Positions 10,423-31,982 of a stretch of DNA of 44,520 nucleotides are shown here, piece by piece. The position numbers were made by a program, and so were the translations under genes. Position 1 is the first letter of the stretch. Every line of letters begins with the position of its first letter. The stretch comes from an uncultured Flavobacteriaceae bacterium (GTDB lineage Bacteria > Bacteroidota > Bacteroidia > Flavobacteriales > Weeksellaceae): positions 1 through 44,520 of the forward strand of contig CAUQHD010000001.1 of NCBI GenBank assembly GCA_963517805.1. The letters are read 5' to 3'. The notes under the pieces were generated by a model, which saw nothing but the letters and a program-made list of their open reading frames with translations, was not told where the DNA came from and searched no databases.

Positions 10423-10427
10423 CTTAG

Positions 10428-12502: not shown

Positions 12503-12535
12503 TCAATATAAATTCCTCATAAAAGAAGGCTTAAT

Positions 12536-15103: not shown

Positions 15104-15159
15104 CGTAATTATTTTAAAAGTGTCTTATTTTTGAGATTAAAGGGTAATTAAAGAATGTT

Positions 15160-15582: not shown

Positions 15583-15583
15583 C

Positions 15584-17176
15584 TTAAAATCGGTTTTTTT
15601 GTTTTGAAATCATATCTTTTCTACTGGTGGTTCTTGGTGGTATAGTGTTGGTAATTGCAGCGATATTAAGTTTAGCAATAGCTGACTGGAGAGCATCGGG
15701 TGCGTCATCATGTGCACCGCTTCCTTTTTTAAAAGCCAAAAGCTGGTCTATCAGTTCTCTGCAGTCTGGAGAATGCTCTAAAGCACTATTGAAAAAAACA
15801 TTATTTCTTTGGAAATATCCCTCCATGCTTTCTATCCTATCAAATTTTCCTGATTTACTCTTATTGTCTGCCATAACAGGAACATGCCAACCTCTAAGGT
15901 CCCCAACCTGGTCAAAATCATTAACAAAGTCATCTTGTGCAAACAGCCCTTCTATCCAATATTGGATATTATAATTTAAAAGATTATTATCTTCTACTAA
16001 GTCATAGAGCCATTCAGCTACATTATGCCTTGAAGTCTGCCGGACAAAACAGTTCAATATATGGAACTCCCGTCCAGTTTTCCCTGCAAAAATCATTGCT
16101 TTATAATCCCCTGCATCCTTATAGGATAAATCGCCGTAAAAACACAAAGCATCATACTGGCGGTATTGCAGGCGCGGTTTATAGTGGATATATTCATTTT
16201 TAAATATCGTTCCTTCTACAATATGCATGTGCATATATTCACGCATAAATGAGCGGTAGGGAGTAGAGATATATTTTTGTTTCCAGTATTCTGCACTAGT
16301 TTTTTCTGGCCAGTTGGGTTCAAAAGTATTTAAATCTTTTACTGCAGGAACAGAAACCAAAAACATGGTAGGCTTCAGCCCTGCATCTTTGAGTTTTTGG
16401 GTAATAACTTTATATTCTGCTTTAAGCTGGTTAATCAGTGTATTTTTATGAAAGTTATTATTAGCTACAATAAATCTTCTGTTTTTACTTCCCTCATCAA
16501 ATGTCCCACGCAAATCTTCCCAAGCATATTCAAATAGTTTAATGGAAAGTTCATCATTAGCACATCGCTGGCGGGTATCCACATCGTCAATTACGATATA
16601 GTCTGGGCGGTTTGCCTCTTCTCTTAAACCTCTTGGCGATTGTCCAGGGGAAGTAGCCATAAATTTGGCACCATCTGTTGTAGTAAAGTCTCCTTCTGCC
16701 CAGTCTCCAAACTTATAACGCTTTCCGTAATAGTGAATAAATATCTGATTATGGCTGATTTGTGCCTGAATATCTGAAATCAGTTTTTTAGCTTTTAAAT
16801 CAGTCTGACCAACCAAAAGCATAAAATGAAGCTTCCCTGTTACATAAAGATACAAGGGAATACCTAAATCTAAATGAACAGATTTTGCTCCAGAGCGGTA
16901 AATTTCTGCCAATACATCACAAACATCATTTTCAATGATGATTTTAGCCAGCTTCGCATGAAACCATGCTGATTTTACTTTTGCATACTGGGGAAACATA
17001 TTTTCAAACCAGTTAATGTAATCCTTTTCCCATTCCAGCCGTTTTTTTCTGCGTTCTGTCGGCGGTTCATTTGGATCAAGCCCTTTGCTGGTTTTTTGGA
17101 CAATGCTTTTACAGTGCTCATCGTAGTTACGGAGCATTTTTTCCATTGCCGTGCTTAGTCTTCCTATTGTGCTCAT
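15584..17176 (-). CDS. Terminase large subunit (Mu gp28-like)
   Basis: 530 aa with a Walker B-like DYIVIDDVD and a C-terminal nuclease motif GSGAHDDAPDALQSAI. Overlaps the small-subunit gene by 1 nt. Confidence 0.8.
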   Translation of the reverse strand: MSTIGRLSTAMEKMLRNYDEHCKSIVQKTSKGLDPNEPPTERRKKRLEWEKDYINWFENMFPQYAKVKSAWFHAKLAKIIIENDVCDVLAEIYRSGAKSVHLDLGIPLYLYVTGKLHFMLLVGQTDLKAKKLISDIQAQISHNQIFIHYYGKRYKFGDWAEGDFTTTDGAKFMATSPGQSPRGLREEANRPDYIVIDDVDTRQRCANDELSIKLFEYAWEDLRGTFDEGSKNRRFIVANNNFHKNTLINQLKAEYKVITQKLKDAGLKPTMFLVSVPAVKDLNTFEPNWPEKTSAEYWKQKYISTPYRSFMREYMHMHIVEGTIFKNEYIHYKPRLQYRQYDALCFYGDLSYKDAGDYKAMIFAGKTGREFHILNCFVRQTSRHNVAEWLYDLVEDNNLLNYNIQYWIEGLFAQDDFVNDFDQVGDLRGWHVPVMADNKSKSGKFDRIESMEGYFQRNNVFFNSALEHSPDCRELIDQLLAFKKGSGAHDDAPDALQSAIAKLNIAAITNTIPPRTTSRKDMISKQKNRF

Positions 17177-17619
17177 TATGCTTCATTTTGGACTTTATGG
17201 AGTAAAAAGAGCTTGTGCCACTCTAAAAAAGAAATAGCAATTTCTGGATCCTGTGTAGCCATCCATGCATCAAATTCTTTAAATACTGCAAAAACGATTG
17301 GAGCAGAAACTCTATCTGACAAGGTCTCAATAACACTGGTAATATCTTTTATTGCCTTAACATCAAGTGTAGCATCCCCACCTTTGGAAAGATGGGTTAA
17401 TTCATTCATTAAAACCTTTTTAATGTTATTAGGAGCAGATAAAAACTGTGTTTTTTTATCATCCCATGAAATATCTCCCTGTATCCCTTTACGCCATCTT
17501 CCTATGGTCTGCTCGGATACATCCAGTGCATTGGCAATAGCTTTCGCTGTCATACCATCCTCTACAAACATACGCTCCGCCATTGCCCTTATAGGTTCAT
17601 TGTTGACTCTTTTTGCCAT
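17176..17619 (-). CDS. Terminase small subunit (Mu gp27/DUF1804-like, HTH)
   Basis: MAERMFVEDGMTAKAIANALDVSEQTIGRWRKG...WDDKK matches the DUF1804 pattern. First gene of the leftward operon. Confidence 0.65.
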   Translation of the reverse strand: MAKRVNNEPIRAMAERMFVEDGMTAKAIANALDVSEQTIGRWRKGIQGDISWDDKKTQFLSAPNNIKKVLMNELTHLSKGGDATLDVKAIKDITSVIETLSDRVSAPIVFAVFKEFDAWMATQDPEIAISFLEWHKLFLLHKVQNEA

Positions 17620-17706: not shown

Positions 17707-18858
17707 TTGAATCCTTGCTTTAAGTTTGTAGAAAATTCTGACAAACAGATGATTTTACTAATAGATAAAAACGAGTTATATGCATACGGCACTATATGGA
17801 ATGGGGATGGAATGTTCTTCGTTTCACAGCTGGCACATCTTGAAAAACATTACAATGATATTAAAATAAAACTTCATACTTATGGAGGCTCCGTATTTGA
17901 CGGCAATATTATGTGTAATGCCATAGAAGCAAGTAAGGCTAATATTACTATTGATGTAATGGGGATAGCTGCAAGTATGGGAGCTATATTGACTATGTCG
18001 GCAAAGAAAGTCCGCATAGTAGATAATGGTTATATTATGATACATGCTCCTCATTCTGGGACATATGGCAACGCTAAAAATATGGAAGATACAGCCAAAC
18101 TGCTTAGAATGATGGAAAAGAATTTTATCCAGCGTCTGGGCAAAAGACTTAATCAGCCGGAAGAATCTGTAAAAAAATACTTAGATGGTGATAATTGGCT
18201 GGATGCACAGGAAGCTTTGGAACTGGGTTTTGTATCTGAAATTATACCAGCTGAGATACAGCCGATTTTACCTGTTAAAAATCCAGAAGAAATGGGAGAA
18301 TCTGAAGTGTATAACCTTTATTCAGAACTACTGTTACAGCCGGCCGCATTATCCAGAAATTCTAATCCTGAACAATTTAATTTAGATAATAATATGAAAC
18401 AGTTGTTAATCACTGCTTTTGCTCTGCAATTAACAGAGCAGAGTTCGGACACGGCATTTGTAAATGCCTTAAAAGAAAAATTTAACAGTCTTGAAGGAGA
18501 ATTAAAGACTGCTAAAAATGAAAAAACAGATGCGGAGGCAAAGCTCCACCAGTATGAATCTTCAAGGATTGATACCATGATTGCGGAAGCTGGTGTATCT
18601 GATGACCAGAAAGAAGTGTATAAGAAAATTGGAGAGACTTCGGGAATTGATGCTCTGGCAGTTGTTCTTAAATCTCAACCAAAGTCTCAGGCTCCTAATA
18701 TTTCAGCAATGATACATAAGGGAAATGCAGGAACTGCCGCACGAATGAACTGGGATTTTGACAAATGGCAGAATGAAGATCCTAAGGGGCTGGAAAAACT
18801 GGCGAAAGATGAGCCAGAAGAATTTCAAAAATTGTTTAACGCTAAATACAAAAAATAG
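17707..18858 (+). CDS. ClpP-family head maturation protease fused to scaffold (Mu gpI-like)
   Basis: GIAASMGA (Ser nucleophile context) and MIHAPH, with a C-terminal coiled-coil region. The ORF opens with TTG at 17707; the first ATG at 17749 is an alternative start. Confidence 0.8.
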   Translation: MNPCFKFVENSDKQMILLIDKNELYAYGTIWNGDGMFFVSQLAHLEKHYNDIKIKLHTYGGSVFDGNIMCNAIEASKANITIDVMGIAASMGAILTMSAKKVRIVDNGYIMIHAPHSGTYGNAKNMEDTAKLLRMMEKNFIQRLGKRLNQPEESVKKYLDGDNWLDAQEALELGFVSEIIPAEIQPILPVKNPEEMGESEVYNLYSELLLQPAALSRNSNPEQFNLDNNMKQLLITAFALQLTEQSSDTAFVNALKEKFNSLEGELKTAKNEKTDAEAKLHQYESSRIDTMIAEAGVSDDQKEVYKKIGETSGIDALAVVLKSQPKSQAPNISAMIHKGNAGTAARMNWDFDKWQNEDPKGLEKLAKDEPEEFQKLFNAKYKK

Positions 18859-18860
18859 TA

Positions 18861-19781
18861 ATGGCAGAATTATTAGACGGTTTGTGGTTAGAGCAGTTTG
18901 TAGAACCACAGCTATTAGAAGACATGAGGAATTATAAGGACGATTTTATCGGCGTCCTTAAACCCGCAAATCCCAGTGCAATAGACAAAGATGGGATTAG
19001 ATTTAATAAACTCATTAATAACATTGATTTTGTTGTTAATGCAACAACAGATTTTACTCCAAAGAAAATCAAAGGGGGGAAATCATTTGTAGAATGGGAC
19101 AAGTTAGACACTACTCCAACACCTTACACTGATGCAGAGTTAAGAGCTATGGCTTTTGATAAAGAAGCTGAAATCAGAGTAGAGCATCTAAATTCATTTA
19201 AAATAGGAATCAGAGATTATGTTTTGAACAAACTGGCTCCTAAAAAGAATGTAGATGGAAAAATGCCAGTAATTAGAACCACTGGGGAAGACTTCAACGG
19301 AAGAAAAAGACTTACCTACAACGATTTGGCAGATTTCCTTTTCAACAGGCTGGCAGATATCAATTTCAGAGACCCTAACGGGCTTTATATGATATTAAAC
19401 GCTGAACATAAAGCCGACCTTATCCACGACAGAGCAAATACAAACTTCTATCGTGATTTGGAAATTGATACGGAAACAGGTGCTTTAAAGAGATTCTTTA
19501 ACTTGAAATTCTTTGAAAATGCTGATGCTCCTATTTATGCAGCCAATGGAGAATTAAAATCCATAGGCGCTGTAAAAGCAACTGGCGACCAAAAAGCTTC
19601 TGTTTTATTCTATGCACCTAATACGGTATATCATATTGAAAGCACAAAAGTACTTTTCAAAGATATGAAAAATGATACCAGAAGTAAAGATCCTGAAAGT
19701 GAAATAAGACTACATACTTATGGATTGTGTGATAAGAGACAGGAAATAGGCTTTGGTGCTATTATTTCTGCTAACTCATAA
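18861..19781 (+). CDS. Major capsid protein (by position and size)
   Basis: 306 aa, immediately after the protease-scaffold gene. Confidence 0.6.
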   Translation: MAELLDGLWLEQFVEPQLLEDMRNYKDDFIGVLKPANPSAIDKDGIRFNKLINNIDFVVNATTDFTPKKIKGGKSFVEWDKLDTTPTPYTDAELRAMAFDKEAEIRVEHLNSFKIGIRDYVLNKLAPKKNVDGKMPVIRTTGEDFNGRKRLTYNDLADFLFNRLADINFRDPNGLYMILNAEHKADLIHDRANTNFYRDLEIDTETGALKRFFNLKFFENADAPIYAANGELKSIGAVKATGDQKASVLFYAPNTVYHIESTKVLFKDMKNDTRSKDPESEIRLHTYGLCDKRQEIGFGAIISANS

Positions 19782-19792
19782 AAAGAGAAGTT

Positions 19793-20026
19793 ATGGCAAC
19801 AAAAGAACAAAAAGAATTTGCGGAAAATTTCTTTAATGAAAATCCGCAGATAAAAGTTCTTTATCTCAATAAAAGAGGGGAATTTTTCACTGATATAAAC
19901 TATCTGACCAATTCCCTTCTAAAAGATAAAGATGGAAAATTAGAGAAATACGAAACTATTAAGCGTGGTGCTGAAAACCAAAAACAGGAGGCTCCAGGCA
20001 GTGAAAACCAACAACAAGAAGAATAA
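19793..20026 (+). CDS. Hypothetical head-associated protein (77 aa)
   Basis: TAATG overlap with the next gene. Q/E-rich tail. Confidence 0.45.
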   Translation: MATKEQKEFAENFFNENPQIKVLYLNKRGEFFTDINYLTNSLLKDKDGKLEKYETIKRGAENQKQEAPGSENQQQEE

Positions 20027-21267
20027 TGTCAAATTTACAAGGAGTTAATATACGGAAAGGAAGACTTGGAGCAAATAGATTAAGCTCCGGTGATGCAATC
20101 AGCGGGATTATTATTTCTGCTGTAGCAGTGTCTTCTCTTGCAGTAGACACACCTATTACGGTGTACAACATGAAAGATGTAGAAACTCTGGGAATTACGG
20201 CAGAATACGACAAAACAAACAAGCTGAATTGTTACCGGCATTTGTCTGAATTCTACCGAATGGCTGGAGAAGGGACGGAATTACATTTAATGATTGTCCC
20301 GCAGACAGACACAATGCCTGACATCTGTGAAAACAAAGCAAAAAAGCTGTTAGCTCATGCCAAAGGCGAAATTAAACAGCTGGCGGTTGCAGTGAACCCC
20401 TCCGGAACAGAAGAACCCACGATGCTGAATGGAATTCCTGCGGATGTTTACAATGCAGTTGCAAAGGCGCAGGGACTTGCAGAGTGGGCATATCAGAATA
20501 ATATGCCGCTGCAAATTTTCTTAGAAGGTTATGCTTATGGCGGTAAAGCTTCTACTTCTGCTAATCTAAGAGATATTACAGATTTGAAAGCTGATAAAGT
20601 AAGTGTTATTATCGGTCAGGATTTCAACTATGCAAAAACTCAGAGCGGTAAGGCTCAAAAATTTGCTGATATAGGGACAGCTTTAGGGGTTTGTTCCAAA
20701 GCAACAGTAAACCAAAATATTGGAGAAAATGAAAGCTTCAATATTACTGATGCCGCAAAAGGAATTTGGGTAGAACCAGGTTTATCTTGCCACAAACCTA
20801 ATACAGAAGTATTTTCAGACTTGCAGACCTTGGAAAATAAAGGATATATCTTCGGAATTACTTATGCAGGAATGGCTGGGGTAAGGTGGAATAATGACCA
20901 TACCTGTACACCTGTTATCATTGATTCTGATAATAAGATTAACGAGCATACTATTGCTTATGGCAGAGTTATGAGTAAGGCTGTAAGAGGGCTTAGAAGT
21001 GTATATCTGCCAAAGATTAAAACTAATTGGGCAGTGGATGGGAAAACTAGCAAACTTAGTCCAGGAACAGTAGTAGCATTAGAAGATATTGGTGATAAAA
21101 TGTTTGAGGACATGATAAAACGAGGGGAGATTACTTACGGAAAAACAATTATTGATAAGGAGAGCGACCTCATTGTTGATAAAGTGCTGAATGTGAGTTT
21201 TAAAATTGTTCCTCGTGGCAATATCGGAGAAATTAACGGAACTATTAACCTTAAAACACAAGCATAA
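20026..21267 (+). CDS. Putative tail sheath protein
   Basis: 413 aa. Precedes a 141-aa tube-sized protein and a frameshifted chaperone pair. The family call is positional only. Confidence 0.5.
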   Translation: MSNLQGVNIRKGRLGANRLSSGDAISGIIISAVAVSSLAVDTPITVYNMKDVETLGITAEYDKTNKLNCYRHLSEFYRMAGEGTELHLMIVPQTDTMPDICENKAKKLLAHAKGEIKQLAVAVNPSGTEEPTMLNGIPADVYNAVAKAQGLAEWAYQNNMPLQIFLEGYAYGGKASTSANLRDITDLKADKVSVIIGQDFNYAKTQSGKAQKFADIGTALGVCSKATVNQNIGENESFNITDAAKGIWVEPGLSCHKPNTEVFSDLQTLENKGYIFGITYAGMAGVRWNNDHTCTPVIIDSDNKINEHTIAYGRVMSKAVRGLRSVYLPKIKTNWAVDGKTSKLSPGTVVALEDIGDKMFEDMIKRGEITYGKTIIDKESDLIVDKVLNVSFKIVPRGNIGEINGTINLKTQA

Positions 21268-21692
21268 TGTCAGGTATTATAAGAAATGGAAAGGCTTATG
21301 ATTCTGTAGATGTTAAGGTACAAATCAATGGAATTCCCATTGAAGTAACCTCCTTAACTTACGGAAATGAGCAGGAGCACCAAGCTAATCACACACTTGG
21401 GGAGAATCCGACATCTTGGTCGGTAGGTAAAAAAACACCTTCTGCAAGTATAGGGATAATGATGCATGATATTGTCCCTTTGGAAATGGCTGCTGGCGGA
21501 AGTCTTTTGAAAATCAAACCTTTTGTAATTACAGTAGAATTTGTCAATGAATACAATATCATAGTGGTAGATAAAATCATTGCCAAGTTCAAAAATGAAG
21601 GGCGTGAAGTAACAGGAGATATGGGACTTAAAAAGGAGTACGAACTCTTTGCTTTGTCTGTAAATCTTAATGTACAGGCAGGAAATATTTAA
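21267..21692 (+). CDS. Putative tail tube protein
   Basis: 141 aa, TAATG-coupled to the sheath candidate. Confidence 0.5.
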   Translation: MSGIIRNGKAYDSVDVKVQINGIPIEVTSLTYGNEQEHQANHTLGENPTSWSVGKKTPSASIGIMMHDIVPLEMAAGGSLLKIKPFVITVEFVNEYNIIVVDKIIAKFKNEGREVTGDMGLKKEYELFALSVNLNVQAGNI

Positions 21693-21723
21693 TCTTTAAT
21701 CAATCTTTAAAAACAATTTAAAA

Positions 21724-22050
21724 ATGTCAAATACAATTTATGTCAGCGAAGAAGTAAAAGAGCAGTATAAAAAAGAACATGGAGCAAAACTACGCTCATT
21801 ATTGCTGCCGAAAGATGATTTTGATAACGAAATCATAGAAGTATTGGCCGTTGTTCCCAGCCGTAATGTGGTGGGACAATACTTAAAATTTGTCAATGCT
21901 GATCCTAAGAAAGCACAAGATATTTTGGTAAAAAATACATTGGTGACACACAAAGAGGAAGTACTGGCAGATGATGGGCTGTTCCTTGCTGCTTTTGGAC
22001 TTATTGTGGATTTAATTCCGATGAGACAGGGAAAGTTTGGGAAAGTTTAG
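21724..22050 (+). CDS. Tail assembly chaperone (G-like, zero-frame product)
   Basis: 108 aa with a slippery heptamer near the 3' end and an open -1 frame downstream. Confidence 0.6.
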   Translation: MSNTIYVSEEVKEQYKKEHGAKLRSLLLPKDDFDNEIIEVLAVVPSRNVVGQYLKFVNADPKKAQDILVKNTLVTHKEEVLADDGLFLAAFGLIVDLIPMRQGKFGKV

Positions 22051-22235
22051 AGGGGTGTTCCGGTCTAAGCGATAATCCCGAAAGTGATTTGTATATGAAG
22101 GCTGATGCCTTAATGAGTTTCTTCCTTCATATACCTTTTCCGGAACAACTCTCTGATGAAGTCTGGGCGATGAAATGGGCACAGCTCGGATGGCTCGCTG
22201 AAAAAGGATTTTTAGGAATTAAAAACAAAGAATAA
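21724..22235 (+). CDS. Tail assembly chaperone, -1 frameshift product (GT-like, about 170 aa)
   Basis: After a -1 slip at 22029-22035 the frame stays open for 66 codons (VWESLEGCSGLSDNPESDLYMKADALMSFFLHIPFPEQLSDEVWAMKWAQLGWLAEKGFLGIKNKE). It ends at TAA 22233-22235, overlapping the next ATG. Confidence 0.5.
22029..22035 (+). other. Programmed -1 ribosomal frameshift slippery heptamer G GGA AAG
   Basis: Zero-frame codons GGA (22030-22032) and AAG (22033-22035) fit X XXY YYZ. This is the same heptamer as the phage lambda G/GT site. GGGAAAG recurs at 22039-22045 but in the wrong phase. Confidence 0.55.
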
Positions 22236-22846
22236 TGAATATTAATGATGGTACTTCAGTAGTAATAAATCTTGCTGCAAGATATATCGCCGCCTTTGGT
22301 ATGGTACAGGCAAGCAAATATATCAACAATGTGGTCATTACCAACGAAGAAAACAAATATAAGATTGATTATTTTGATGATTTTAATCCAGAAACCGAAA
22401 CTGTCAGAATAGCCCACAGTTCTATGGAGCTGGTGTTTGGAGATACATTATTAGAGGCAGGAAACAGTGTTTTTGCTCCGCCCTTAATGATGACATTTAC
22501 TAAAGAAAAAGCCCTTATAGAGACTGAAACCAACGGAGATGACAATGTAATTATTGAGCGTTGGACAACCAAACCTTGGGAGATAGAAATAAAGGGAATT
22601 TTAATTGATTTAGAAAACAGGCAGTATCCAAGTGATAAGATTAGAGAACTGCACCAGCTGTTTAAAATCAATGATATTCTGGATGCTTACGGAATTCAAT
22701 TTGAGGAAAAAGATATAGAGGCTATTTACCTTAAAAGCCTTTTTATTACGCCGACAGAAGGATTTGCTGATACAGTACAGTTTTCATTGTCAGCATCAGC
22801 CATTAAATCAGTATCCTGGACATTAGACCAGCCTAACGAATCATGA
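22235..22846 (+). CDS. Tail/baseplate-associated protein (hypothetical, 203 aa)
   Basis: Coupled ORF within the tail cluster. Confidence 0.45.
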   Translation: MNINDGTSVVINLAARYIAAFGMVQASKYINNVVITNEENKYKIDYFDDFNPETETVRIAHSSMELVFGDTLLEAGNSVFAPPLMMTFTKEKALIETETNGDDNVIIERWTTKPWEIEIKGILIDLENRQYPSDKIRELHQLFKINDILDAYGIQFEEKDIEAIYLKSLFITPTEGFADTVQFSLSASAIKSVSWTLDQPNES

Positions 22847-23865
22847 AACCATTTTTAAACATCAACCTTCGGGTAACTATTGCAGATAATATTAAGTTCA
22901 ATGTCGTGGAAAGTATCCGTATTGAAAACAGTACGGAGAAATTCACTGACACTGCAAAAATAGTGCTTCCCCGTGAGTTTAAACAGGCAGTAAAAAATGG
23001 AGATCGATTTTCTATTGCCGACAAGAAACTCTTGGATGTTATAAAAATTGGAGACAGTATTACTATAGAAGCAGGATATAATGGAGAGTATCATACTGAA
23101 TTTGTCGGATATATCACTAAAATAGGTGCTGAAGCTCCAATAGAGATAGAGTGTGAAGACGAGATGTATAAACTCAAAAAAGCACAACCGATAAAAAAGC
23201 TTTATTCGGCAGTAGATTTAAAAGTACTATTACGGGATATTGCCCCTGGCTATGAAATAGAAACCTTTAAAGAAATGCCTCTGGGAAAGTTTGCTGTAAA
23301 TAATGCAACTCCCTACAAGGTAATTGAATATTTAAAGCAAAACTACGGTGTGAGATGTTTTTTTAAGGGTAAAAAACTCATTGCAGGGTTAAATATCAGT
23401 CTTAAACCAGATGCCGTGCATGAATTCAATCTTAATAGGAATGTAAGAGCTGGCAGTAGTTTAGTCTATGAAACCAAAGAAAACCGTAAAAGATGGATAA
23501 AAGCCATAAGTAAGCAAAAAGGAAATTCCAAAGAGGTTACCTACGAGTTTGGAGAACAGGGAGAAAGTGAAATTACTTTACATGGTCCCATTAACCTAAA
23601 TCAAGCCCAGCTAAAAAAGTGGGCAGAAGACTATTATAAAAGTTTAGTATATGACGGGTACAGCGGTGATTTTAATTCTTGGGGAATTCCCAGAACTAAG
23701 GCTGGTGATTCTGCAAAAATTACAGACCCTAACTATCCGGATAAGCACAGAGACGGTATATTTTATATTTCATCTGTGGTAATAGACATCAGCGAAAGTC
23801 AAGGCTTTCAAAGAAAAAATACAATAACATTTAAAATTAAAGACAAAGACTATGCAGATATTTAA
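22843..23865 (+). CDS. Baseplate hub / late control D-like tail protein
   Basis: 340 aa, ATGA overlap. The N-terminal pattern PFLNINLRVTIADN...ESIRIENSTEKFTDTAKIVL resembles the gpD/Mu P family. Confidence 0.45.
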   Translation: MKPFLNINLRVTIADNIKFNVVESIRIENSTEKFTDTAKIVLPREFKQAVKNGDRFSIADKKLLDVIKIGDSITIEAGYNGEYHTEFVGYITKIGAEAPIEIECEDEMYKLKKAQPIKKLYSAVDLKVLLRDIAPGYEIETFKEMPLGKFAVNNATPYKVIEYLKQNYGVRCFFKGKKLIAGLNISLKPDAVHEFNLNRNVRAGSSLVYETKENRKRWIKAISKQKGNSKEVTYEFGEQGESEITLHGPINLNQAQLKKWAEDYYKSLVYDGYSGDFNSWGIPRTKAGDSAKITDPNYPDKHRDGIFYISSVVIDISESQGFQRKNTITFKIKDKDYADI

Positions 23866-24388
23866 AGCTGTATTTGGGGTATTGCTTTTGCTGTTTTGTC
23901 TTACAGGCTGTAAGACCTACAAAGAACCGCAACCCATTACACAGAAAGAAACAGAAATCGTAACGAAAACGATTACAAAAACACAAAGAGACACCATTAT
24001 ACAGGTAAAAGCCGACAGTTCTTATTACGAGGCTTACATAGACTGCAGGGATGGAAAGCCCAAAATATTAGACCATTCTTCTGGGAAACCTCAAAAAGTA
24101 AGACCAGGTAAGAACTTAAAGCCTCCTACCGCTAAAATAGATGAAAACGGAAAACTACAGGTAAGCTGTGAAAGTTTAGAGCAACAATTAACTGTGGCTC
24201 TTTGGGAAAATCATATTTTAGAATCAAAACTCAAAGAAAAAACTATTATTCCGCCTCCTGTTGAAATAGAAAAAAAACTAACATGGTGGCAAAAACTCTA
24301 TATAAGAACAGGGCAGTTATCTATACTTATATTGTTAATTTACTTAGGATTTAAAATACCGTGGAAGCGTTTAATGAAGCTGTTTTAA
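23852..24388 (+). CDS. Lipoprotein with C-terminal TM anchor (u-spanin-like architecture)
   Basis: Lipobox LTGC after a hydrophobic signal (MQIFKAVFGVLLLLFCLTGC). C-terminal hydrophobic helix QLSILILLIYLGFKIPW. Overlaps both neighbouring genes. Confidence 0.5.
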   Translation: MQIFKAVFGVLLLLFCLTGCKTYKEPQPITQKETEIVTKTITKTQRDTIIQVKADSSYYEAYIDCRDGKPKILDHSSGKPQKVRPGKNLKPPTAKIDENGKLQVSCESLEQQLTVALWENHILESKLKEKTIIPPPVEIEKKLTWWQKLYIRTGQLSILILLIYLGFKIPWKRLMKLF

Positions 24389-24858
24389 GAGTTGTTAAAG
24401 GTTATCATTCCCAGACTACCTCATTGGTAACTATGGGAATAGTGAAAGAGATAACAGGTTCTACCTGCATGGTAGAGCGGGAGAACCTGCCTCCTTTACA
24501 AGATGTAAGGCTAAATGCCATTGAGGGGGATTTTGACAATCATATTTTAATTATTCCTAAAATAGGCTCCAAAGTCCTTTGTTTAGTGATTGGAGACCAA
24601 AACGAAGAAACAGCCATTATTAAATATACCGAGATTGAAAAAGTAATCATCCAAATTGAGGGAGCAAAATTTGAAATGAGTGGAGGAAAGTTTCAATTTA
24701 AAAATAATAGAGCTGACCTAAAAGAAATTCATAACGAACTGCTGGAAACCCTTAATAATGCAATAATATTGACACCTAATGGAGCTGGTAGATTTGCTCC
24801 AACAACAAAACAAAAGTTAAACCAAATCAAGACCAAAAACAATGAACTATTTGAATGA
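24361..24858 (+). CDS. Baseplate assembly protein V-like / spike
   Basis: MGIVKEITGSTCMVERENLPPLQDVRLNAI...PKIGSKVLCLVIGDQNEETAII resembles the gpV OB-fold pattern. GTG start at 24361; alternative ATG at 24433. Confidence 0.45.
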   Translation: MEAFNEAVLRVVKGYHSQTTSLVTMGIVKEITGSTCMVERENLPPLQDVRLNAIEGDFDNHILIIPKIGSKVLCLVIGDQNEETAIIKYTEIEKVIIQIEGAKFEMSGGKFQFKNNRADLKEIHNELLETLNNAIILTPNGAGRFAPTTKQKLNQIKTKNNELFE

Positions 24859-25066
24859 TAACGCTTTAAAACAAGGGCTTATTAAACTTCAAAAAGAGAT
24901 GATTACTAAGGAAGATGATGCTTTTGAATATTGGGCTGATGAAATGGTTAAACTAATCAAAGCTTATATAAAGTCTGGAAAAGTAACTGTTAAACCAGGA
25001 ATAAATGTAAATACAACAGGAGGGTCTGGAGCAACAACTACTGAAGGAATCGGTACAATCAGCTAA
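24842..25066 (+). CDS. Hypothetical baseplate-cluster protein (74 aa)
   Basis: Overlapping ORF in the operon. Confidence 0.4.
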   Translation: MNYLNDNALKQGLIKLQKEMITKEDDAFEYWADEMVKLIKAYIKSGKVTVKPGINVNTTGGSGATTTEGIGTIS

Positions 25067-25069
25067 ACT

Positions 25070-25360
25070 ATGAGACAGGATATATTATTAGATAACAATA
25101 ACGATCTGCAATTATATAATGGGGATTTTGTAATTGATAACAGTGACCAACAACATGTAGAACATATAGTACATGCTCAAAAAGGAGAATATAAAAACTA
25201 TCCTATTACAGGTTTTGGGGTAGTAAATTATTTAAAGAAGACCAATCGTGTTAAAAGTGATTTTAAACGAGATTTAAAGATACAATTAGAAAATGATAAC
25301 TATCAAAATCCTAAAATTGACCTTTCAGATGGATTTGAAAACTTAAAAATAGAAATATAA
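25070..25360 (+). CDS. Baseplate wedge protein, gp25/W-like
   Basis: 96 aa. The call rests on size, position and GEYKNYPITGFG. Confidence 0.4.
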   Translation: MRQDILLDNNNDLQLYNGDFVIDNSDQQHVEHIVHAQKGEYKNYPITGFGVVNYLKKTNRVKSDFKRDLKIQLENDNYQNPKIDLSDGFENLKIEI

Positions 25361-25363
25361 AAT

Positions 25364-25657
25364 ATGACAACCATCATATTACACAATCAAAGTCTTTTAG
25401 ATTTGGCGGTTCAGCACACGGGAGCAGTAGAAAATACCTTTGCGATTGCTGTTGCTAATGGACTGAGTCTGACCGATGATTTACCTGCAGGAGCAGAAAT
25501 TAAGATTCCAGACAGCGTGAATAAAGACAGCGATGTGCTGAATTATTACATCGCAAAAAGACTTCAACCTGCCACAGCAGTAATCCTGCCTCCAGAGGAG
25601 GAAAGATTAGAGGGTATTGGATATTGGGTTATTCAAACAGATTTTAAAGTAAGTTAA
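25364..25657 (+). CDS. Tail protein X-like (LysM-like fold)
   Basis: SLLDLAVQHTGAVENTFAIAVANGLSLTDDLPAGAEIKIPD fits the P2 gpX/LysM pattern. Confidence 0.5.
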   Translation: MTTIILHNQSLLDLAVQHTGAVENTFAIAVANGLSLTDDLPAGAEIKIPDSVNKDSDVLNYYIAKRLQPATAVILPPEEERLEGIGYWVIQTDFKVS

Positions 25658-25661
25658 AAAA

Positions 25662-26501
25662 ATGGCACGAACAATAGAACAAATCAACAGCGAAATCATC
25701 AAGGCAAAGGAATCAGAACCTGCTCTTGCAGGGCTGACATCGACCAGCAAGGTGGCAATATGGAGGCTTTGGGCGTATATCACAGCATTTGTGATTTACA
25801 CACTGGAACTGATATTTGACCAGCACAAAGCGGAGGTTTTAGATGCCTTAACTCAATTAAAGCCCCACACGGCAAGATGGTACCGCAACAAGGCATTAGC
25901 CTTTCAATATGGATTTGACTTAATCACGGACACAGATAAATTCAATAATCAAGGATTTTCCGAAGACCAGATTTCGGCTTCTAAAATTGTCAAATTTTCT
26001 GCAGTAACCGAAGCGGATACAGAGAGCCGTCTCATTGTCAAAATTGCCACTGAACAAGGCGGAGAACTTCAGCCAATAAGCGTTGGACAAAAAGCCTCTT
26101 TTGATGCCTATATGAACGAAATCAAAGACGCAGGGGTAAGAATTACAGTTATCAATTATCTGCCCGATGTTCTCAAATTACAGATGAAAATCTACCGAGA
26201 CCCTTTGGTTTTGGACGAGAATGGACAAAGCATCATAACGGGTAAAAAGCCGGTAGAAGATGCCATTAAAGAGTATTTGAAAAATCTGCCTTTTGATGGA
26301 GAATTAGTCCTCGCACACTTGGTGGATGCTCTCCAACAGGTAGAGGGAGTAAGAATCCCGCATATCATTTTGGCTGAAAGCAAATGGATAGATGCAGGAG
26401 TGAATGATTATGGTGGTTATGAGACCATAGAGGTTAAGAAAATCCCTGTTTCGGGGTATTTTAAGATAGAGAATTTCAATAATATAGAGTATGTGGTTTA
26501 A
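25662..26501 (+). CDS. Baseplate J-like protein
   Basis: 279 aa. The call rests on its position in the baseplate cluster. Confidence 0.4.
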   Translation: MARTIEQINSEIIKAKESEPALAGLTSTSKVAIWRLWAYITAFVIYTLELIFDQHKAEVLDALTQLKPHTARWYRNKALAFQYGFDLITDTDKFNNQGFSEDQISASKIVKFSAVTEADTESRLIVKIATEQGGELQPISVGQKASFDAYMNEIKDAGVRITVINYLPDVLKLQMKIYRDPLVLDENGQSIITGKKPVEDAIKEYLKNLPFDGELVLAHLVDALQQVEGVRIPHIILAESKWIDAGVNDYGGYETIEVKKIPVSGYFKIENFNNIEYVV

Positions 26502-26952
26502 TCTGGACATCCCAAAATTGACAAGCCTTTTAACTCCGACTTTCCTCCGTAGGGAAAAGCTCTCGGCATGGCTTCGGGCGCTTCATTATCCACTTATCAA
26601 AGTTGCGGATGATTTCAATGTGAATAGGAATGCTAACCTCTACAATATCGCTCACAATGGGCAGGTGTGCTATCTCCGCGCTGCGCTTAACGATAAGTTT
26701 GACATCAGTCAAAGGCGGATAAAGATAACTGACGGAAACAGGTTTCAACGGCAGTATATCTATACCAGGGGAGAGCAAAAACCGAAGTTTTTGGGTACGA
26801 TTTATCTCTATGAAAGAGCCGATTATGGCGATACAGGAGTTGATTTTATCGTACTGATTCCGAGAGGACTGCTGTATAATGAATTTGAAATGAAATACTT
26901 AATAGATTTTTATAAACTAGCTTCAAAACGCTATAAAATACAAGAATATTAA
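26491..26952 (+). CDS. Hypothetical baseplate/tail protein (153 aa)
   Basis: Overlapping ORF in the operon. Confidence 0.45.
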   Translation: MWFNLDIPKLTSLLTPTFLRREKLSAWLRALHYPLIKVADDFNVNRNANLYNIAHNGQVCYLRAALNDKFDISQRRIKITDGNRFQRQYIYTRGEQKPKFLGTIYLYERADYGDTGVDFIVLIPRGLLYNEFEMKYLIDFYKLASKRYKIQEY

Positions 26953-26953
26953 C

Positions 26954-27754
26954 ATGAATATAGTAAGATATAAACAAACAGGAGGGTTTCCGCTGGATAC
27001 CAATAATCTGGATTTTCTGCAAAGTTCTTTCCATATCCTTAACACGCTTGGGAATTTGGCTGGTGATATGGTAATTATCTCGGGGTGTGAAACAGCAGGG
27101 AACACGGTAAGTAACGGAGTGGTTTATGTGAACAAAGAAGTATTGGAGTTCAGAGGCGGAAGTCTTTCGGCTAATGTCTTTATCAAAGAAGAGGAAGTAT
27201 CAGGAACTTTTGAAGACGGTTCATTTAAACCTATTGAGATTACACGATATGTAACATTCGGAAGCTCTACACCCGATAAAACCTTTAAATGGGAAGATTT
27301 TAAGCGTGTAGATAATTTGATAAAGCAAGGGGTAAAGAATGCTGATTTTGAGAAAAGAATTAAAGCTCTTGAAAACAAGAAAAGCCCTGTGCCGATTGGT
27401 TTAATTGCCATCTGGGGGAAACCAGCCAGCGAACCTATACCAGAGGGCTGGAAAGAGTGCACCGACCTTAGGGGAAGAATGCCCCTGGGCTGGAATCCAG
27501 ATGATACTGATTTTAACGAATTGCTTAAAAATGATGGAGAAAAGACACACCAGCTGACCATTGCAGAAATGCCCGCTCATAGCCATAAACTACCGGCGTC
27601 TCCTCATAGAAGTGAAAGTGGAGGGGGATGGTTTCAGACAAATGGTAGTGGTGCTGGCTGGTATGATTCGCAAACTACTGGAGGCAACCAGCCGCACAAT
27701 AATATGCCTCCATACAGAATTATTAAGTTCATTGAGTTTGTAGGATTTAATTAA
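26954..27754 (+). CDS. Tail fibre protein with phage tail collar domain
   Basis: IPEGWKECTDLRGRMPLGW...GEKTHQLTIAEMPAHSHKL...GGNQPHNNMPPYRIIKFI matches the Collar (MdpB-like) domain signature. Confidence 0.8.
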   Translation: MNIVRYKQTGGFPLDTNNLDFLQSSFHILNTLGNLAGDMVIISGCETAGNTVSNGVVYVNKEVLEFRGGSLSANVFIKEEEVSGTFEDGSFKPIEITRYVTFGSSTPDKTFKWEDFKRVDNLIKQGVKNADFEKRIKALENKKSPVPIGLIAIWGKPASEPIPEGWKECTDLRGRMPLGWNPDDTDFNELLKNDGEKTHQLTIAEMPAHSHKLPASPHRSESGGGWFQTNGSGAGWYDSQTTGGNQPHNNMPPYRIIKFIEFVGFN

Positions 27755-27765
27755 AATTTAAGATT

Positions 27766-28050
27766 ATGGCACAAACAGCAATAAATACAATAAAACAGTG
27801 GTTTAAAACAGGTTTAAAACCTACACAGGAACAATTCTGGAATTGGATAGATTCCTTCTGGCACAAGGATGAACTGATACCGCAGGACAAAGTCCAAGAT
27901 TTGGAAACCACGCTTTCTGGCAAGGCCGATGCCGACCGGTTGGAAAACAAAGCTAATGCAGATGCTACAGGACTGACAGAGGAGCATGTTGCTAAATGGC
28001 GGGAGGCACTAGGTATTAAACCCACAGCATCGGGAAAATCTTTTGAATAA
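27766..28050 (+). CDS. Tail-fibre-associated protein (94 aa)
   Basis: The N-terminal WFKTGLKPTQEQFWNWIDSFWHKDE motif is common at tail-fibre N-termini in Bacteroidota phages (from recollection). Confidence 0.45.
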   Translation: MAQTAINTIKQWFKTGLKPTQEQFWNWIDSFWHKDELIPQDKVQDLETTLSGKADADRLENKANADATGLTEEHVAKWREALGIKPTASGKSFE

Positions 28051-28077
28051 TAACATTAACATTAAATATATAACATT

Positions 28078-29175
28078 ATGAGATTCGTAGAATTACAGAC
28101 AAGACCTCTGACAGAGGCAGCGCCGGCACCCGGAACAATTGTCACAGAAAAAGACACACTAATCGCACATCAGGTATCGGCAACCGAAGCCGATTTGTAT
28201 GTGACCGACGACAAAGGAAAAGCCTTGAAAGTAAGAACAGAAAGCACACAATCCAGCGGAAGCGGAGGAACAACGGAGGACACTCGCTATGTGCAGAAAG
28301 AACAAGTGGATAACCTTATTCCAGAGATGGATAAAGATAAGAGGATTAAGTTTTTAGAGTCAATATTTAATGGGGCTTATTTAGCCGATGAAATGGGGGG
28401 AAGTGAATCACAGAACACTACCAAGATAGAATTTGACACAGCATCGGCTAATATGGGAGTAAATATTGTTTCAAGAGAAAAGTATTATACTATAGGTAAT
28501 AATGGAGGGACTCTTACTTTCTTTGATAATCACGGAACGCAATTAACAAAAGTGTTAGCTAAGGATGATTGTTTAGCCTCTGTTTATGACAAGGATAATA
28601 ATAATCTTTTCAAAGGAAGAGTGTTTGTTCCACGCATTATGGGGGGAGGAAAGAGTGTAGTAGAAAGAAATGGTGTAGGACTTCCTTTTGCTGGAAATAA
28701 TACACTTGTTAAGTTTGAAAGGGTTAGTGTTAGGGAATCTGACCTCAAATCAGTTGAATTTTTAATTGATGAGTCAAGCTTTGGAACTCACCCTCAAAAA
28801 AGGTGGATAATGCATGATGTGCAAAATATTATTACATTATCTCCTATATATCCAGGACCGTTAAATCTAGATAATTTAACTGGTGTAAAGTTCTTAAATG
28901 GAAGTTTAAAAGAAAAAGTTAAGCTATACAAAAATAGTCTTAATAAATATCAGGTTATTGTAAAAATTAACATAGATTCATCAATGAGTAAGATTGCGTT
29001 TATTGGGGTAAATGGAGCGACTGAAACAGAATTAAATACCCCCGTTAAGCTTACCCCTGCACAGATTGATAATCTTGGAGAATATAAGAGTCTTCTCTCT
29101 GGAAATCAAGCAGGAGTTTACTTGTTTACCCTTGATAATCTTCCAGAAAAAGTAATGATAAGACATAGAGAGTAA
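28078..29175 (+). CDS. Distal tail fibre / receptor-binding protein candidate
   Basis: 365 aa, last gene of the late operon, followed by a strong terminator. Confidence 0.5.
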   Translation: MRFVELQTRPLTEAAPAPGTIVTEKDTLIAHQVSATEADLYVTDDKGKALKVRTESTQSSGSGGTTEDTRYVQKEQVDNLIPEMDKDKRIKFLESIFNGAYLADEMGGSESQNTTKIEFDTASANMGVNIVSREKYYTIGNNGGTLTFFDNHGTQLTKVLAKDDCLASVYDKDNNNLFKGRVFVPRIMGGGKSVVERNGVGLPFAGNNTLVKFERVSVRESDLKSVEFLIDESSFGTHPQKRWIMHDVQNIITLSPIYPGPLNLDNLTGVKFLNGSLKEKVKLYKNSLNKYQVIVKINIDSSMSKIAFIGVNGATETELNTPVKLTPAQIDNLGEYKSLLSGNQAGVYLFTLDNLPEKVMIRHRE

Positions 29176-29185
29176 GTAAAGATTA

Positions 29186-29210
29186 CCAGCGTCTTCGGGC
29201 GCTGGGTTTT
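29186..29210 (+). terminator. Rho-independent terminator with UUCG tetraloop
   Basis: CCAGCGTC-TTCG-GGGCGCTGG (8-bp stem including one G:U), followed by GTTTT. Confidence 0.75.
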
Positions 29211-29225
29211 AAAAAAGAAAGAATT

Positions 29226-29588
29226 ATGAATGAATTTATAAATGAACACATTTTGCCGCACTTCGGAACTTTCATTTCCGCAGTGCTGACGGGTTTGGCG
29301 GGGTTTATCTTTGGAAAGCGGAAACAGAAGGCAGAAACCGAATCTATTGAAATCAACAATGACACGGTAGAAATCGGAAATGCCGACAAGCTAGTGAAAG
29401 TCTATAAAGATACTTTGGATGACCTACAGACCCGATATGAGGCTAAGTTTAAGGAAATCACAGGGCTTTATGAAGACAAAATCAAGCTCTTGCAGGACGA
29501 AATCACCATTTTAAAGAGAAGCATCAAGCAGCTGAAAGAAGAAAATATACTGCTTCGGCAAAGGCTCAAAGAAAATAATTTAGAGTAA
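29226..29588 (+). CDS. Type II membrane protein with coiled-coil ectodomain (i-spanin/holin-like architecture)
   Basis: N-terminal TM FGTFISAVLTGLAGFIFG, then a heptad-rich region (LQDEITILKRSIKQLKEENILLRQRLKE). Confidence 0.5.
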   Translation: MNEFINEHILPHFGTFISAVLTGLAGFIFGKRKQKAETESIEINNDTVEIGNADKLVKVYKDTLDDLQTRYEAKFKEITGLYEDKIKLLQDEITILKRSIKQLKEENILLRQRLKENNLE

Positions 29589-29596
29589 AATCCTCT

Positions 29597-29622
29597 GGAG
29601 GACAGGATTAAAAATGTCCTCC
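29597..29622. repeat. 8-bp perfect inverted repeat GGAGGACA-N10-TGTCCTCC between convergent genes
   Basis: Lies 9 nt after the stop at 29588 and overlaps the last codons of the minus-strand gene 29608-30816. Confidence 0.5.
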
Positions 29623-30816
29623 TATTTCGATTAGATCAAGACAATAATTCCATAAAATGACCCAAGGGAATAATTTGTAAAGTCCATATATCAAACATAA
29701 TGAAACTGTAATTAATAAGATATAATATAACAATTTTTGTCTATTTAGCAACCTATCAATTCGTTTTTTATCATCAATCCATTGTGTTTTTAATTTTTCA
29801 GGTATTTTACCTTTTTCTTCATAATTATCTACATCCTCTTTTATATAACCTAATACTAATTTCTGATTTGTTAGAGCACAAACACATATAATACAATAAA
29901 TACATAAAGCAAGGTATACTAACCAATTATCTCCTGATTTTAACGCTATAGGAATTGTGGTTAAAAAAGGTAATCCTAAAAATTGAGGTAAAACTTTACT
30001 TATTGTATCATTTGCTTTTACTACAAACTTTTCACTGTTTTCTTCCAATTTTTTAACAAACCTCTCATAACTAAAATTTTCAAGATAGAGAGCATACTGT
30101 GCTTGTACAGATTCATTAATATCTTTAATTCTTTTTATTACATGTAATAAATTAGCATTTTGAGGTAATGCATCAGATAAAACGAAAGCTAAAATAGATT
30201 TCTTTTCATCAATATGACTGCTTGTTTCTTCATCATCTAACCATTCTTTAAAATCTATAAGTAGTTTGTAACTATCCTTATGTAGATTAGATAATAAACT
30301 TATAAATTGGGGTATATGACTACTAACATCAAAAGATAATTCAAATGTTTTTTTACTAAAAAATATTAACTTTCTATTAGTATTATCTGTGTAAGAATCC
30401 ATAGTAATTAATTGAGATAAAAAATCTTTAATTACTAAATAATTTACTATAATTTGTGATTTGTTTTCATCAAATGATGCTATATCTTCTGATTTTATAT
30501 AGTAAGGAGAATGGTTAAAAGATTGATTATTTATATTTGCCATATCACCCTTAATAAAAGATTCTATATTATTATAAAAACGCCCAAATGTTGGTTTTGG
30601 TGTACCAAATTGAATTTTAACAGTATTCCCTATCGCTAGATCACCATCTAAAATGTTGAAATTAGTATTTTCAAAGTATTCATCCGATGATAATAATTGT
30701 AATAGTTGAAGTTCTTCTGAAGATTCTATTAAATAAATCCCCTCTCCCAAATTTATATCAATTTGGGATTCACGGTAAATTTGGATTAAATCTACAAAAG
30801 AAACACTATTATTCAT
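29608..30816 (-). CDS. Orphan membrane protein (about 280-aa soluble N-terminal region plus 3-4 C-terminal TM helices), partner of the NdpA-like gene
   Basis: 402 aa. Hydrophobic segments are LPFLTTIPIAL, WLVYLALCIYCIICVCAL, LLYYILLITVSLCLIYGLY and FPWVILWNYCL. The ATG lies 2 nt after the upstream stop. Very AT-rich. Confidence 0.7.
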   Translation of the reverse strand: MNNSVSFVDLIQIYRESQIDINLGEGIYLIESSEELQLLQLLSSDEYFENTNFNILDGDLAIGNTVKIQFGTPKPTFGRFYNNIESFIKGDMANINNQSFNHSPYYIKSEDIASFDENKSQIIVNYLVIKDFLSQLITMDSYTDNTNRKLIFFSKKTFELSFDVSSHIPQFISLLSNLHKDSYKLLIDFKEWLDDEETSSHIDEKKSILAFVLSDALPQNANLLHVIKRIKDINESVQAQYALYLENFSYERFVKKLEENSEKFVVKANDTISKVLPQFLGLPFLTTIPIALKSGDNWLVYLALCIYCIICVCALTNQKLVLGYIKEDVDNYEEKGKIPEKLKTQWIDDKKRIDRLLNRQKLLYYILLITVSLCLIYGLYKLFPWVILWNYCLDLIEIGGHF

Positions 30817-30818
30817 TG

Positions 30819-31790
30819 TTAATCAAAAGCTTTTAAAAGACTTTCTGTAGGGTTGTTAATAATTATTTTACCATTTTCTATAAATATATCTCCATTATTA
30901 ATTGCATCCCTAGTAAAGAATAAACTCCAATGTTTAGTTTTTCCAGTATATGTTGATAATGATTTTATAGAACGCTTATCTGGAATGAATCCATCAGATA
31001 CACCATTCTCACCCCCTAATCGCTCTTTCAAAAGTTGTGGTTCTTCAGGGTAAATTTGGTTTGAGAATGTTTCTAATACAAAAGGTTCATTATTATCACT
31101 AATGTGGGCTAAATAGTTTTTAGCCCTTTCAAAAAAATCAGTTTTTTCTTCTTGGGAAAATTGTTTATCAGAGGCAAATTCTTCAAGAAAATTGACAAGT
31201 TTTTTTGTTTCTGTACTTGCTATTAAAGCATCATTACAAGCCAAAAACTCCTTAAAATATTCTGAAACATCATCTTTTCCTTTCAAAAAACTGATATAGC
31301 GACTTTTATCATTATTTTGCCAAGCTGTTAAATTAACTCGACCAGCAAATTTTAAATGTTCAATGTCTAATATTTCATTCTCTGTTATCTGCCAATCTTG
31401 GGCCAAAAAACCAGCTTTTTCAGATAGAATAGCAACTAATATGTAAATATTATTTTCACTCTCATAATGAATAATAAATACTTTACCACCTGTAGCTAAT
31501 CTTTGATTATTAACCTTATTTAACAAAATATTCATCATTCTCTCCGTTAAATTATGGAAATTATTATCAGATAAATATTCCCGTAATAATCTAGGCATAG
31601 GATAAATATCTTCATTTTCATTAAAGATTCCATACCCCTTACCTGCTCTACCTGTATAAGCCTTATTCAATTGATCCAAAAACTTACGATGTGAATCATT
31701 TGGAATAAGCTGATTAGGGTTAATATCTAATGTGCCTTCAGAAGAATATTGCTTCTTATTTAGAATATGGTAAATGATATCTTTAATCAT
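30819..31790 (-). CDS. Nucleoid-associated protein, NdpA/YejK family
   Basis: 323 aa, collinear with E. coli YejK as I recall it. Matching blocks: IIYHILNKK/IALHQLIKR, GKGYGIF/NKAYGLF, GGKVFIIHY/GGFVLFCHY, ILVAILS/LLVAVLS, RYISFLKGK/RYLTFLKGR, FIPDKRSIKSLSTY/FPADRSTLRQLTKF. Confidence 0.85.
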   Translation of the reverse strand: MIKDIIYHILNKKQYSSEGTLDINPNQLIPNDSHRKFLDQLNKAYTGRAGKGYGIFNENEDIYPMPRLLREYLSDNNFHNLTERMMNILLNKVNNQRLATGGKVFIIHYESENNIYILVAILSEKAGFLAQDWQITENEILDIEHLKFAGRVNLTAWQNNDKSRYISFLKGKDDVSEYFKEFLACNDALIASTETKKLVNFLEEFASDKQFSQEEKTDFFERAKNYLAHISDNNEPFVLETFSNQIYPEEPQLLKERLGGENGVSDGFIPDKRSIKSLSTYTGKTKHWSLFFTRDAINNGDIFIENGKIIINNPTESLLKAFD

Positions 31791-31982
31791 ATTTATTGTT
31801 TATTATTGCACGAATTTATGGCTTTTGATCTAACTATACAAAAAAACTTTTAAATTTTATACTTTTTTTCCAATCAAAAATGGGAAGTCATACCCAAAAA
31901 TTTCTTTACTTTTGGTTTTGCCGATTATAAAAATGCAATTCTTTTTAATACGAAAAAAAGAATTTTTTCAAGGAAAAATATA

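Follow-up and report, generated by a model that had tools for sequence, protein, structure and literature searches.

What is the role of two AT-rich genes that lie at the right end of a Mu-like prophage and run against its late genes? The genes are found in a 44,520-nt stretch of DNA from an uncultured Flavobacteriaceae bacterium (contig CAUQHD010000001.1), hereafter called the window, to whose coordinates all positions refer; contigs and loci used for comparison carry L-numbers (L001 etc.). The first gene (30819..31790, minus strand) encodes an NA37/YejK-family nucleoid-associated protein of 323 amino acids (aa), identified from its open reading frame (ORF) and from Pfam, NCBIfam, PHROG and PDB matches. 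The second (29608..30816, minus strand) encodes a 402-aa partner, a putative membrane effector, assigned from its ORF and from comparisons with NCBIfam DS1_2, phrog_5023, BLASTP and hhalign. The most probable answer (probability roughly 0.7) is that the two genes form an anti-phage system of the DS-1 / type II PANGU kind, carried by a temperate Mu-like phage as lysogenic-conversion cargo. For the cassette itself, the analysis established homology, the order and spacing of the genes, their domain layout and co-conservation, the status as cargo, and the neighbours in defence islands. A preliminary description of this DNA had read the pair as a defence module made of a nucleic-acid-binding sensor and a membrane effector, and this view is supported by the homology to DS-1, the PANGU architecture, the co-conservation of the pair and its restriction-modification (R-M) neighbours.

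The two genes are separated by 2 nt (junction TAA-CA-ATG), and both are antiparallel to the plus-strand late genes adjoining them. The G+C content of the cassette (29604-31930) was 26.6%, against a mean of 36.2% (standard deviation 1.9, minimum 32.3) for all other 2327-bp segments of the window, and G+C at third codon positions (GC3) was 13-18% in both genes compared with 28-43% in genes of the phage and the host. In composition the cassette stands far apart from the rest of the window, as the preliminary description had noticed.

DS-1 is the DefensePredictor system D390 of Escherichia coli, which has been shown to protect against phages (bioRxiv 2025.01.08.631726; Science 2026, PMC13092281). 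In E. coli MG1655 it reduced plating by 7.6 logs for Bas1, 2.7 for Bas26, 1.7 for Bas3 and T3, 1.0 for T5 and 0.9 for T7, and the YejK nucleoid-associated domain was listed in that study among the domains newly validated in defence (PMC13092281). According to the DefensePredictor tables, DS-1A (WP_000355468.1, 391 aa, 220602-221777) has a zinc-ribbon-like N-terminus and NA37 at 42-382, and is followed after a 2-nt gap by DS-1B (WP_000150292.1, 404 aa, 221780-222994; PMC13092281). The window pair has the same arrangement: the NA37 gene comes first, a partner of about 400 aa (402 vs 404 aa) second, the gap is again 2 nt, and the partner has a soluble N-terminal region followed by C-terminal hydrophobic helices.

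This likeness extends to the proteins. The 323-aa protein matched NCBIfam DS1_1 (NF053868, 'nucleoid-associated anti-phage protein') with 78.7 bits (4e-22, residues 32-248; cut-off 330), and the partner matched DS1_2 (NF053869, 'anti-phage protein') with 44 bits (1.6e-11; cut-off 315). In pairwise comparison the NA37 protein was 24% identical to DS-1A over 192 residues (E = 3e-12) and the partner 24% identical to DS-1B over 327 residues (E = 1e-6, BLASTP). The partner family profile aligned with DS-1B at 94.6% probability over 303 columns (hhalign), collinear through the transmembrane (TM) region. Of 120 diverse sequences from the partner superfamily, 117 matched DS1_2, and no other family was matched consistently. 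As judged from these alignments, both cassette proteins are remote collinear homologues of both DS-1 components over most of their lengths, and the window NA37 is homologous to DS1_1 but not an equivalog. The differences are an identity of about 24% with scores 4-7 times under the equivalog cut-offs, a shorter NA37 protein (323 vs 391 aa) that lacks the ~40-residue N-terminal zinc-ribbon element of DS-1A (its residues ~3-26), partner TM helices much more hydrophobic than those of DS-1B, another host phylum, and carriage by a Mu-like prophage.

The cassette is accordingly a divergent prophage-borne member of the DS-1 / type II PANGU kind and not a new category of system. The preliminary description had called it undescribed, stating that no defence system built on an NdpA-family protein was known; this does not hold, since DS-1 (NF053868/NF053869) and PANGU describe this kind. 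Its forecast that PADLOC would give no match came true, as PADLOC-DB 2.0 matched neither protein, but the result is uninformative about novelty, because that database dates from 2023, before DS-1 and PANGU.

In PANGU, a YejK-like nucleoid-associated protein (NAP) acts as the infection sensor; phage-induced genome degradation frees it from the nucleoid, and the freed sensor binds and activates an effector via an acidic 'DNA-mimicking' domain (10.64898/2026.04.06.716658). Type II PANGU consists of the NAP Pag2A and of Pag2B, an effector with an acidic (DMK) domain at its N-terminus and a TM region at its C-terminus. Protection needs both genes and takes the form of abortive infection; for PANGU-Ecu, GFP-Pag2A was shown to leave the nucleoid upon T4 infection, and the isolated acidic domain to bind Pag2A with a dissociation constant (KD) of 19 nM (10.64898/2026.04.06.716658). 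These bicistronic systems (adjacent genes <40 bp apart) show linkage to defence genes, R-M among them, and are distributed across phyla, with sporadic occurrence in Bacteroidota (10.64898/2026.04.06.716658). The window pair fits the operon definition (NA37 at 5e-69, 2-nt gap), and its partner has the effector layout, with a net charge of -16 and an isoelectric point (pI) of 4.7 for residues 1-270 and TM helices at 298-316 and 362-380, DNA mimicry being assigned by analogy only. Linkage to defence genes was found for homologues, and the neighbours in the window are phage and housekeeping genes. The pair thus resembles type II PANGU as a bicistronic, defence-linked, cross-phylum combination of a YejK-like NAP with an effector that is acidic at the N-terminus and membrane-spanning at the C-terminus; the likeness is one of described architecture, and the window branch differs in its NA37 N-domain pore residues. 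The word 'prophage' was not found in the main text of the PANGU preprint (10.64898/2026.04.06.716658).

That the upstream product belongs to the NdpA/YejK family over its whole length, as first proposed, was confirmed by Pfam PF04245 (5e-69, profile positions 1-322 of 325, residues 6-316 of 323). It also matched phrog_3767 'nucleoid associated protein' at 2.8e-74 and the solved YejK structure (PDB 9be2) at 1e-22. In YejK, mutation of six pore residues (R173/R176/K177 and R276/R280/K284) impairs DNA binding (PMC11229321). In an alignment with YejK, the window protein has K/D/D at the first three positions and K/K/T at the other three. Cassette-type NA37s have G-D, G-E or D-D in place of R176/K177 and retain a basic pair in the C-domain at R276/R280 (K/K in the window). 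The alignment indicates that this change in the pore lining is specific to the branch, and DNA clamping may therefore differ from that of YejK. The window NA37 shares one fold family with E. coli YejK over the full length, but it cannot be counted as a housekeeping YejK, as it scored 166 bits against the YejK equivalog model NF001557 (cut-off 341) and does not retain the pore residues, with D-D replacing R176/K177. YejK is, moreover, a stand-alone housekeeping chromosomal gene, whereas the window NA37 lies on a mobile element and is always coupled to a membrane partner.

The 402-aa partner matched no Pfam family, and over its full length it matched phrog_5023 'unknown function' at 3.3e-26. About 270 soluble residues are followed by two strong hydrophobic segments (298-316 and 362-380) and a weak one (275-293), with Kyte-Doolittle 19-residue means of 2.45, 2.09 and 1.35, respectively. 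In the AlphaFold2 model (pLDDT 82, pTM 0.61) an alpha/beta domain and a helical middle precede four long C-terminal helices (230-293, 298-335, 340-382 and 385-401). The layout seen earlier in the preliminary description was confirmed. Residues 1-270 (30007..30816, minus strand) form a soluble acidic alpha/beta plus helical domain with pLDDT mostly 85-94, and this region was acidic in 17 of 17 aligned members of the partner family. By analogy with Pag2B it may serve as the DNA-mimicking (DMK-like) domain on which the NA37 dimer docks. The membrane module (residues 275-380; 29677..29994, minus strand) comprises the weak helix 275-293, a turn SGDN, TM 298-316, a basic loop at 317-361 (net charge +3, pI 9.4) and TM 362-380. 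From the positive-inside rule, the N-terminus would be cytoplasmic, the protein would span the membrane three times (275-293, 298-316 and 362-380), and the basic loop would lie inside. A Foldseek search of the partner model against PDB and BFVD gave nothing at E <= 0.001, so no known fold or effector class could be assigned. A membrane module of the Pfam 8xMP type (PF24838, 'octameric membrane protein'), hinted at by a Helicobacter homologue, was considered and rejected, as the window partner gave no match; among 120 partner relatives three matched, all under the gathering score (best 26 bits, cut-off 30), and a literature search on this hint found nothing relevant.

A lack of co-conservation of the two genes elsewhere had been named beforehand as an outcome that would refute the defence reading, and the opposite was observed. 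In every one of 20 distinct foreign contexts, drawn from three phyla, the partner gene was immediately preceded by an NA37 gene of the same orientation that abutted or overlapped it; these contexts comprise 16 loci from a scan of species-representative genomes (L001-L016), an island in Haemophilus, Helicobacter, phage phi2LM21, and two distant members from metagenomes (L042 and L044). It also precedes the partner in every near-identical copy of the prophage whose contig reaches far enough; on L022 an 83-aa NA37 remnant is all that is present. Across loci, the identities of both proteins to the window proteins co-vary (r = 0.83). The hosts belong to Bacteroidota, Pseudomonadota and Campylobacterota, and the pairs of Pasteurellaceae, Morganella and Moellerella are about 60% identical to the Flavobacteriaceae pair; together with the G+C anomaly, this cross-phylum identity points to horizontal spread. 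An exhaustive profile search placed the wider partner family at 753 clusters at 50% identity, nearly all of 380-430 aa. The divergent branch of the window comprises about 100 clusters at 90% identity.

Several of these relatives lie among defence genes. On metagenomic contigs of Haemophilus parainfluenzae (L023-L026), the pair is accompanied by a type I R-M system (HsdM/HsdS) in an island bracketed by two copies of the insertion sequence (IS) IS1595, which on contig L023 also contains a SocA/Panacea gene. This island occupies three different positions in the chromosome and resembles a composite transposon that moves defence genes. In another relative, the pair adjoins an MmeI-type enzyme. In the temperate Sinorhizobium phage phi2LM21 (L028, MF614627.1 43795-45973), p68 'nucleoid-associated protein' and the hypothetical protein p67 overlap by 8 nt, and the pair is found near one end of the genome record, beside a Dam adenine methyltransferase and a LigD-type ligase.

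The prophage in the window is, by its gene content, a transposable, Mu-like phage, with PHROG matches for a MuA-like transposase (phrog_310), a MuB-like protein (phrog_296), terminase, portal, tape measure, sheath and tail proteins. The host falls among uncultured Flavobacteriaceae by its EF-Tu, which is 99-100% identical to proteins listed under that name. The cassette makes up the final 2.3 kb of the prophage. Other contigs carry near-identical copies of the cassette (97% and 93% nucleotide identity) whose homology to the window is confined to 29604-31930, and position 29604 is a mosaic breakpoint at which homology to L017/L018 ends. On the other side, four unrelated flanks (those of the window, L017/18, L019 and L020) abut an identical TATAATCGGCAAAACC at base level, and contig L021 begins exactly at the base of this terminus; position 31929 was therefore taken as the right terminus of the phage, with the prophage/host junction at 31929..31930. 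The prophage recurs, again with the cassette as the final module, in at least five host neighbourhoods (pdxA; DinB/NADAR/RecG; Ank-repeat/RtcB; a 290-aa gene; DUF6909), and L030-L037 carry it beside differing host genes, as expected of a randomly transposing phage.

In two related prophages (L050:3043-4122 and L051), a Dam-type N6-adenine methyltransferase gene (PF02086, 2.5e-26) replaces the cassette after the same 120-aa gene, in the slot that corresponds to window 29589-31929. This gene is transcribed outward, and the arm that carries it ends in a similar terminus (...GACGATTATA). The occurrence of the methyltransferase in the same slot means that the right end is a swappable cargo slot and that the cassette is dispensable for the phage. 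The right end of these related Mu-like prophages behaves as a cargo hotspot. In phage Mu, the right end carries the accessory, non-essential genes gin/com/mom, of which mom is transcribed outward. The comparison with a mom-like slot, made in the preliminary description, is upheld by the terminus at 31929, the insertion sites and the Dam gene: the window cassette is likewise accessory cargo, located at the right extremity of a transposable phage, and the methyltransferase of the related Flavobacteriaceae phages is functionally reminiscent of mom. There is, however, no sequence relationship to the Mu genes, the cassette is transcribed inward and not outward with the late genes, and a putative defence system stands in the place of a DNA-modification function.

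No long terminal inverted repeats were found between the prophage ends; the window starts inside the repressor gene, which leaves the left end outside it. The right-end 19-mer was not found in the left-end region of L038. Short motifs do occur at the ends: the right end (window 31900-31912) holds ACCAAAAGTAAAG read inward, the left-end region of L038 (L038:1119-1132) holds ACCAAATGTAATAG in the same inward orientation, and L050 has GACATTTTGTTTTGA twice at its right end. Each of these motifs is a candidate site for binding of the transposase.

How the pair might act in a lysogen can be outlined from these data and from the relatives. A 139-nt leader (31791..31929, minus strand) extends from the phage right terminus to the NA37 start codon and contains the terminal transposase-end sequence GCCGATTATA (31920-31929) and a single Bacteroidota-type promoter candidate (-33 TTTG at 31842-31839; -7 TAAATTCG at 31818-31811). 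By itself this promoter match is weak evidence, because the pattern has a background of 0.67 per kb per strand. Transcription would start at the candidate promoter (31811-31842), at the very right end of the prophage, and proceed inward, and translation of the two genes would be coupled. NA37 may form a YejK-type dimeric clamp on the host nucleoid, while the inactive 402-aa partner would reside in the inner membrane with its acidic N-terminal domain facing the cytoplasm. If an infecting lytic phage degrades or remodels the chromosome, NA37 would be freed and would bind the acidic DNA-mimic domain of the partner, whose helical membrane module would then damage the membrane, so that the infected cell no longer supports phage growth (abortive infection). 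The carrier's own lytic cycle should not trigger such a sensor of genome degradation, because a transposable phage replicates inside, and needs, an intact host chromosome; the cargo would thus be safe for its carrier and block competitors that degrade the genome. In this scheme protection, its dependence on both genes, the relocation of the sensor and the tight binding of the latter by the acidic domain are taken over from the literature on relatives, and would apply to the cassette by analogy.

Several points weigh against this interpretation. Neither protein reaches the NCBIfam DS-1 equivalog cut-off (79 vs 330 bits and 44 vs 315 bits), and with an identity to DS-1 of only about 24%, the function is extrapolated across a large distance. 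The defence phenotype of the window branch is drawn from relatives, and within DS-1 protection was shown only for the E. coli system. The comparison with PANGU is one of architecture; membership in its 'Cluster 2' is a candidate assignment, and DS-1 and PANGU-Ecu may or may not be one family. The PANGU preprint itself left the activation and membrane action of Pag2B open (10.64898/2026.04.06.716658). Two of the three N-domain pore residues used by YejK for DNA binding are missing in the cassette-type NA37s. Expression in the lysogen is deduced from one weak promoter match. Finally, in an otherwise identical prophage (L032:3853-4712), the NA37 gene is broken up into three ORFs of 71, 116 and 126 aa next to an intact partner gene, which reflects either decay of the sensor or an assembly error.

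A variant of the defence interpretation, possible though doubtful, is that this branch senses something besides bulk chromosome degradation, e.g. incoming linear phage DNA at the membrane, and may have been chosen as cargo because transposable phages never degrade the host genome. It is suggested by an NA37 protein without the N-domain basic cluster and by partner TM helices that are far more hydrophobic. If true, defence and anti-restriction cargo would have a hotspot at the right end of Mu-like Flavobacteriaceae phages, with modules exchanged across phyla in animal-associated microbiomes.

Superinfection exclusion appears unlikely. Here the partner would hold the NA37 clamp at the inner membrane, where phage DNA would be captured or blocked at injection, and the lysogen would survive. 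Such a role would suit prophage cargo oriented for expression in the lysogen and the pairing of a membrane protein with a DNA-binding clamp, and a pore lining unlike that of housekeeping YejK could mean a different DNA substrate. However, type II PANGU acts by abortive infection and its NAP is on the nucleoid, not at the membrane, before infection, and the pair is also found in chromosomal and IS-borne islands without a phage.

It is similarly improbable that NA37 is an accessory nucleoid protein in the service of the mobile element, tuning host chromatin or transposition targets with the partner as its membrane tether or regulator. NdpA-type proteins occur on plasmids such as pCAR1, NA37 recurs in phage genomes (phrog_3767) and, according to reviews, on mobile elements, and the carrier phage replicates by transposition and so depends on the state of the nucleoid. 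Yet the same pair is found outside phages beside R-M systems, its replacement by a Dam methyltransferase in related phages shows that the phage can do without it, and both genes have homologues in DS-1, whose defence phenotype was tested. A lysis or virion-associated module, with the 402-aa protein as a holin-like or structural membrane protein, could be supposed from its several hydrophobic helices and the adjoining tail-fibre region, but was rejected as highly improbable because the endolysin gene (Amidase_3) is far off at 7884-8429, the cassette is antiparallel to the late genes, no PHROG lysis or structural matches were found, and the pair also occurs in non-phage islands.

Returning to the DS-1 / type II PANGU interpretation, NAP-based immunity was described only in 2025-2026, and the cassette would add a compact, naturally mobile example from the Bacteroidota, a phylum in which such systems were noted as sporadic. 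The locus provides evidence for dissemination of the system by temperate transposable phages, which bear either it or a Dam methyltransferase as their terminal cargo. It also belongs to a divergent, well-populated branch that current models miss (PADLOC 2.0) or score far under threshold (NCBIfam). Its natural variants (an altered clamp pore, the absence of the zinc ribbon and stronger TM helices) could help to resolve how sensor and effector communicate.

The cassette was at first described as following the last tail-fibre gene and its terminator. A GC-rich terminator is indeed found at 29186-29205, after the 365-aa fibre-region gene, but a further phage ORF of 120 aa (29226..29588, plus strand) lies between this terminator and the cassette. 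A second hairpin with an 8-bp stem (GGAGGACA...TGTCCTCC; 29597..29622), read from the sequence, is located where the 120-aa phage gene and the partner gene converge, and overlaps the stop codon of the latter.

Elsewhere in the prophage, a 157-aa ORF with two or three hydrophobic helices and no Pfam match (1489-1962, minus strand) lies between the ner-like and MuA-like transposase genes on the opposite strand, and could be a second accessory gene expressed during lysogeny, e.g. for exclusion. The distal tail-fibre module varies among near-identical prophages: it encodes 365 aa in the window (26954-29175), a 620-aa GDSL-lipase-like protein in L030-L037 (L030:7629-9491) and 569 aa in L050/L051 (L050:922-2631), which suggests swapping of host-range modules beside the cargo slot. 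The late genes are arranged divergently, with a minus-strand block (9336-17619) that contains the tape measure, the large terminase and an 855-aa protein matching both portal and Mu-F-like/minor-head PHROG families, and a plus-strand block (17707-29588) with protease, sheath, baseplate and fibres; this layout is unusual for a Mu-like phage.

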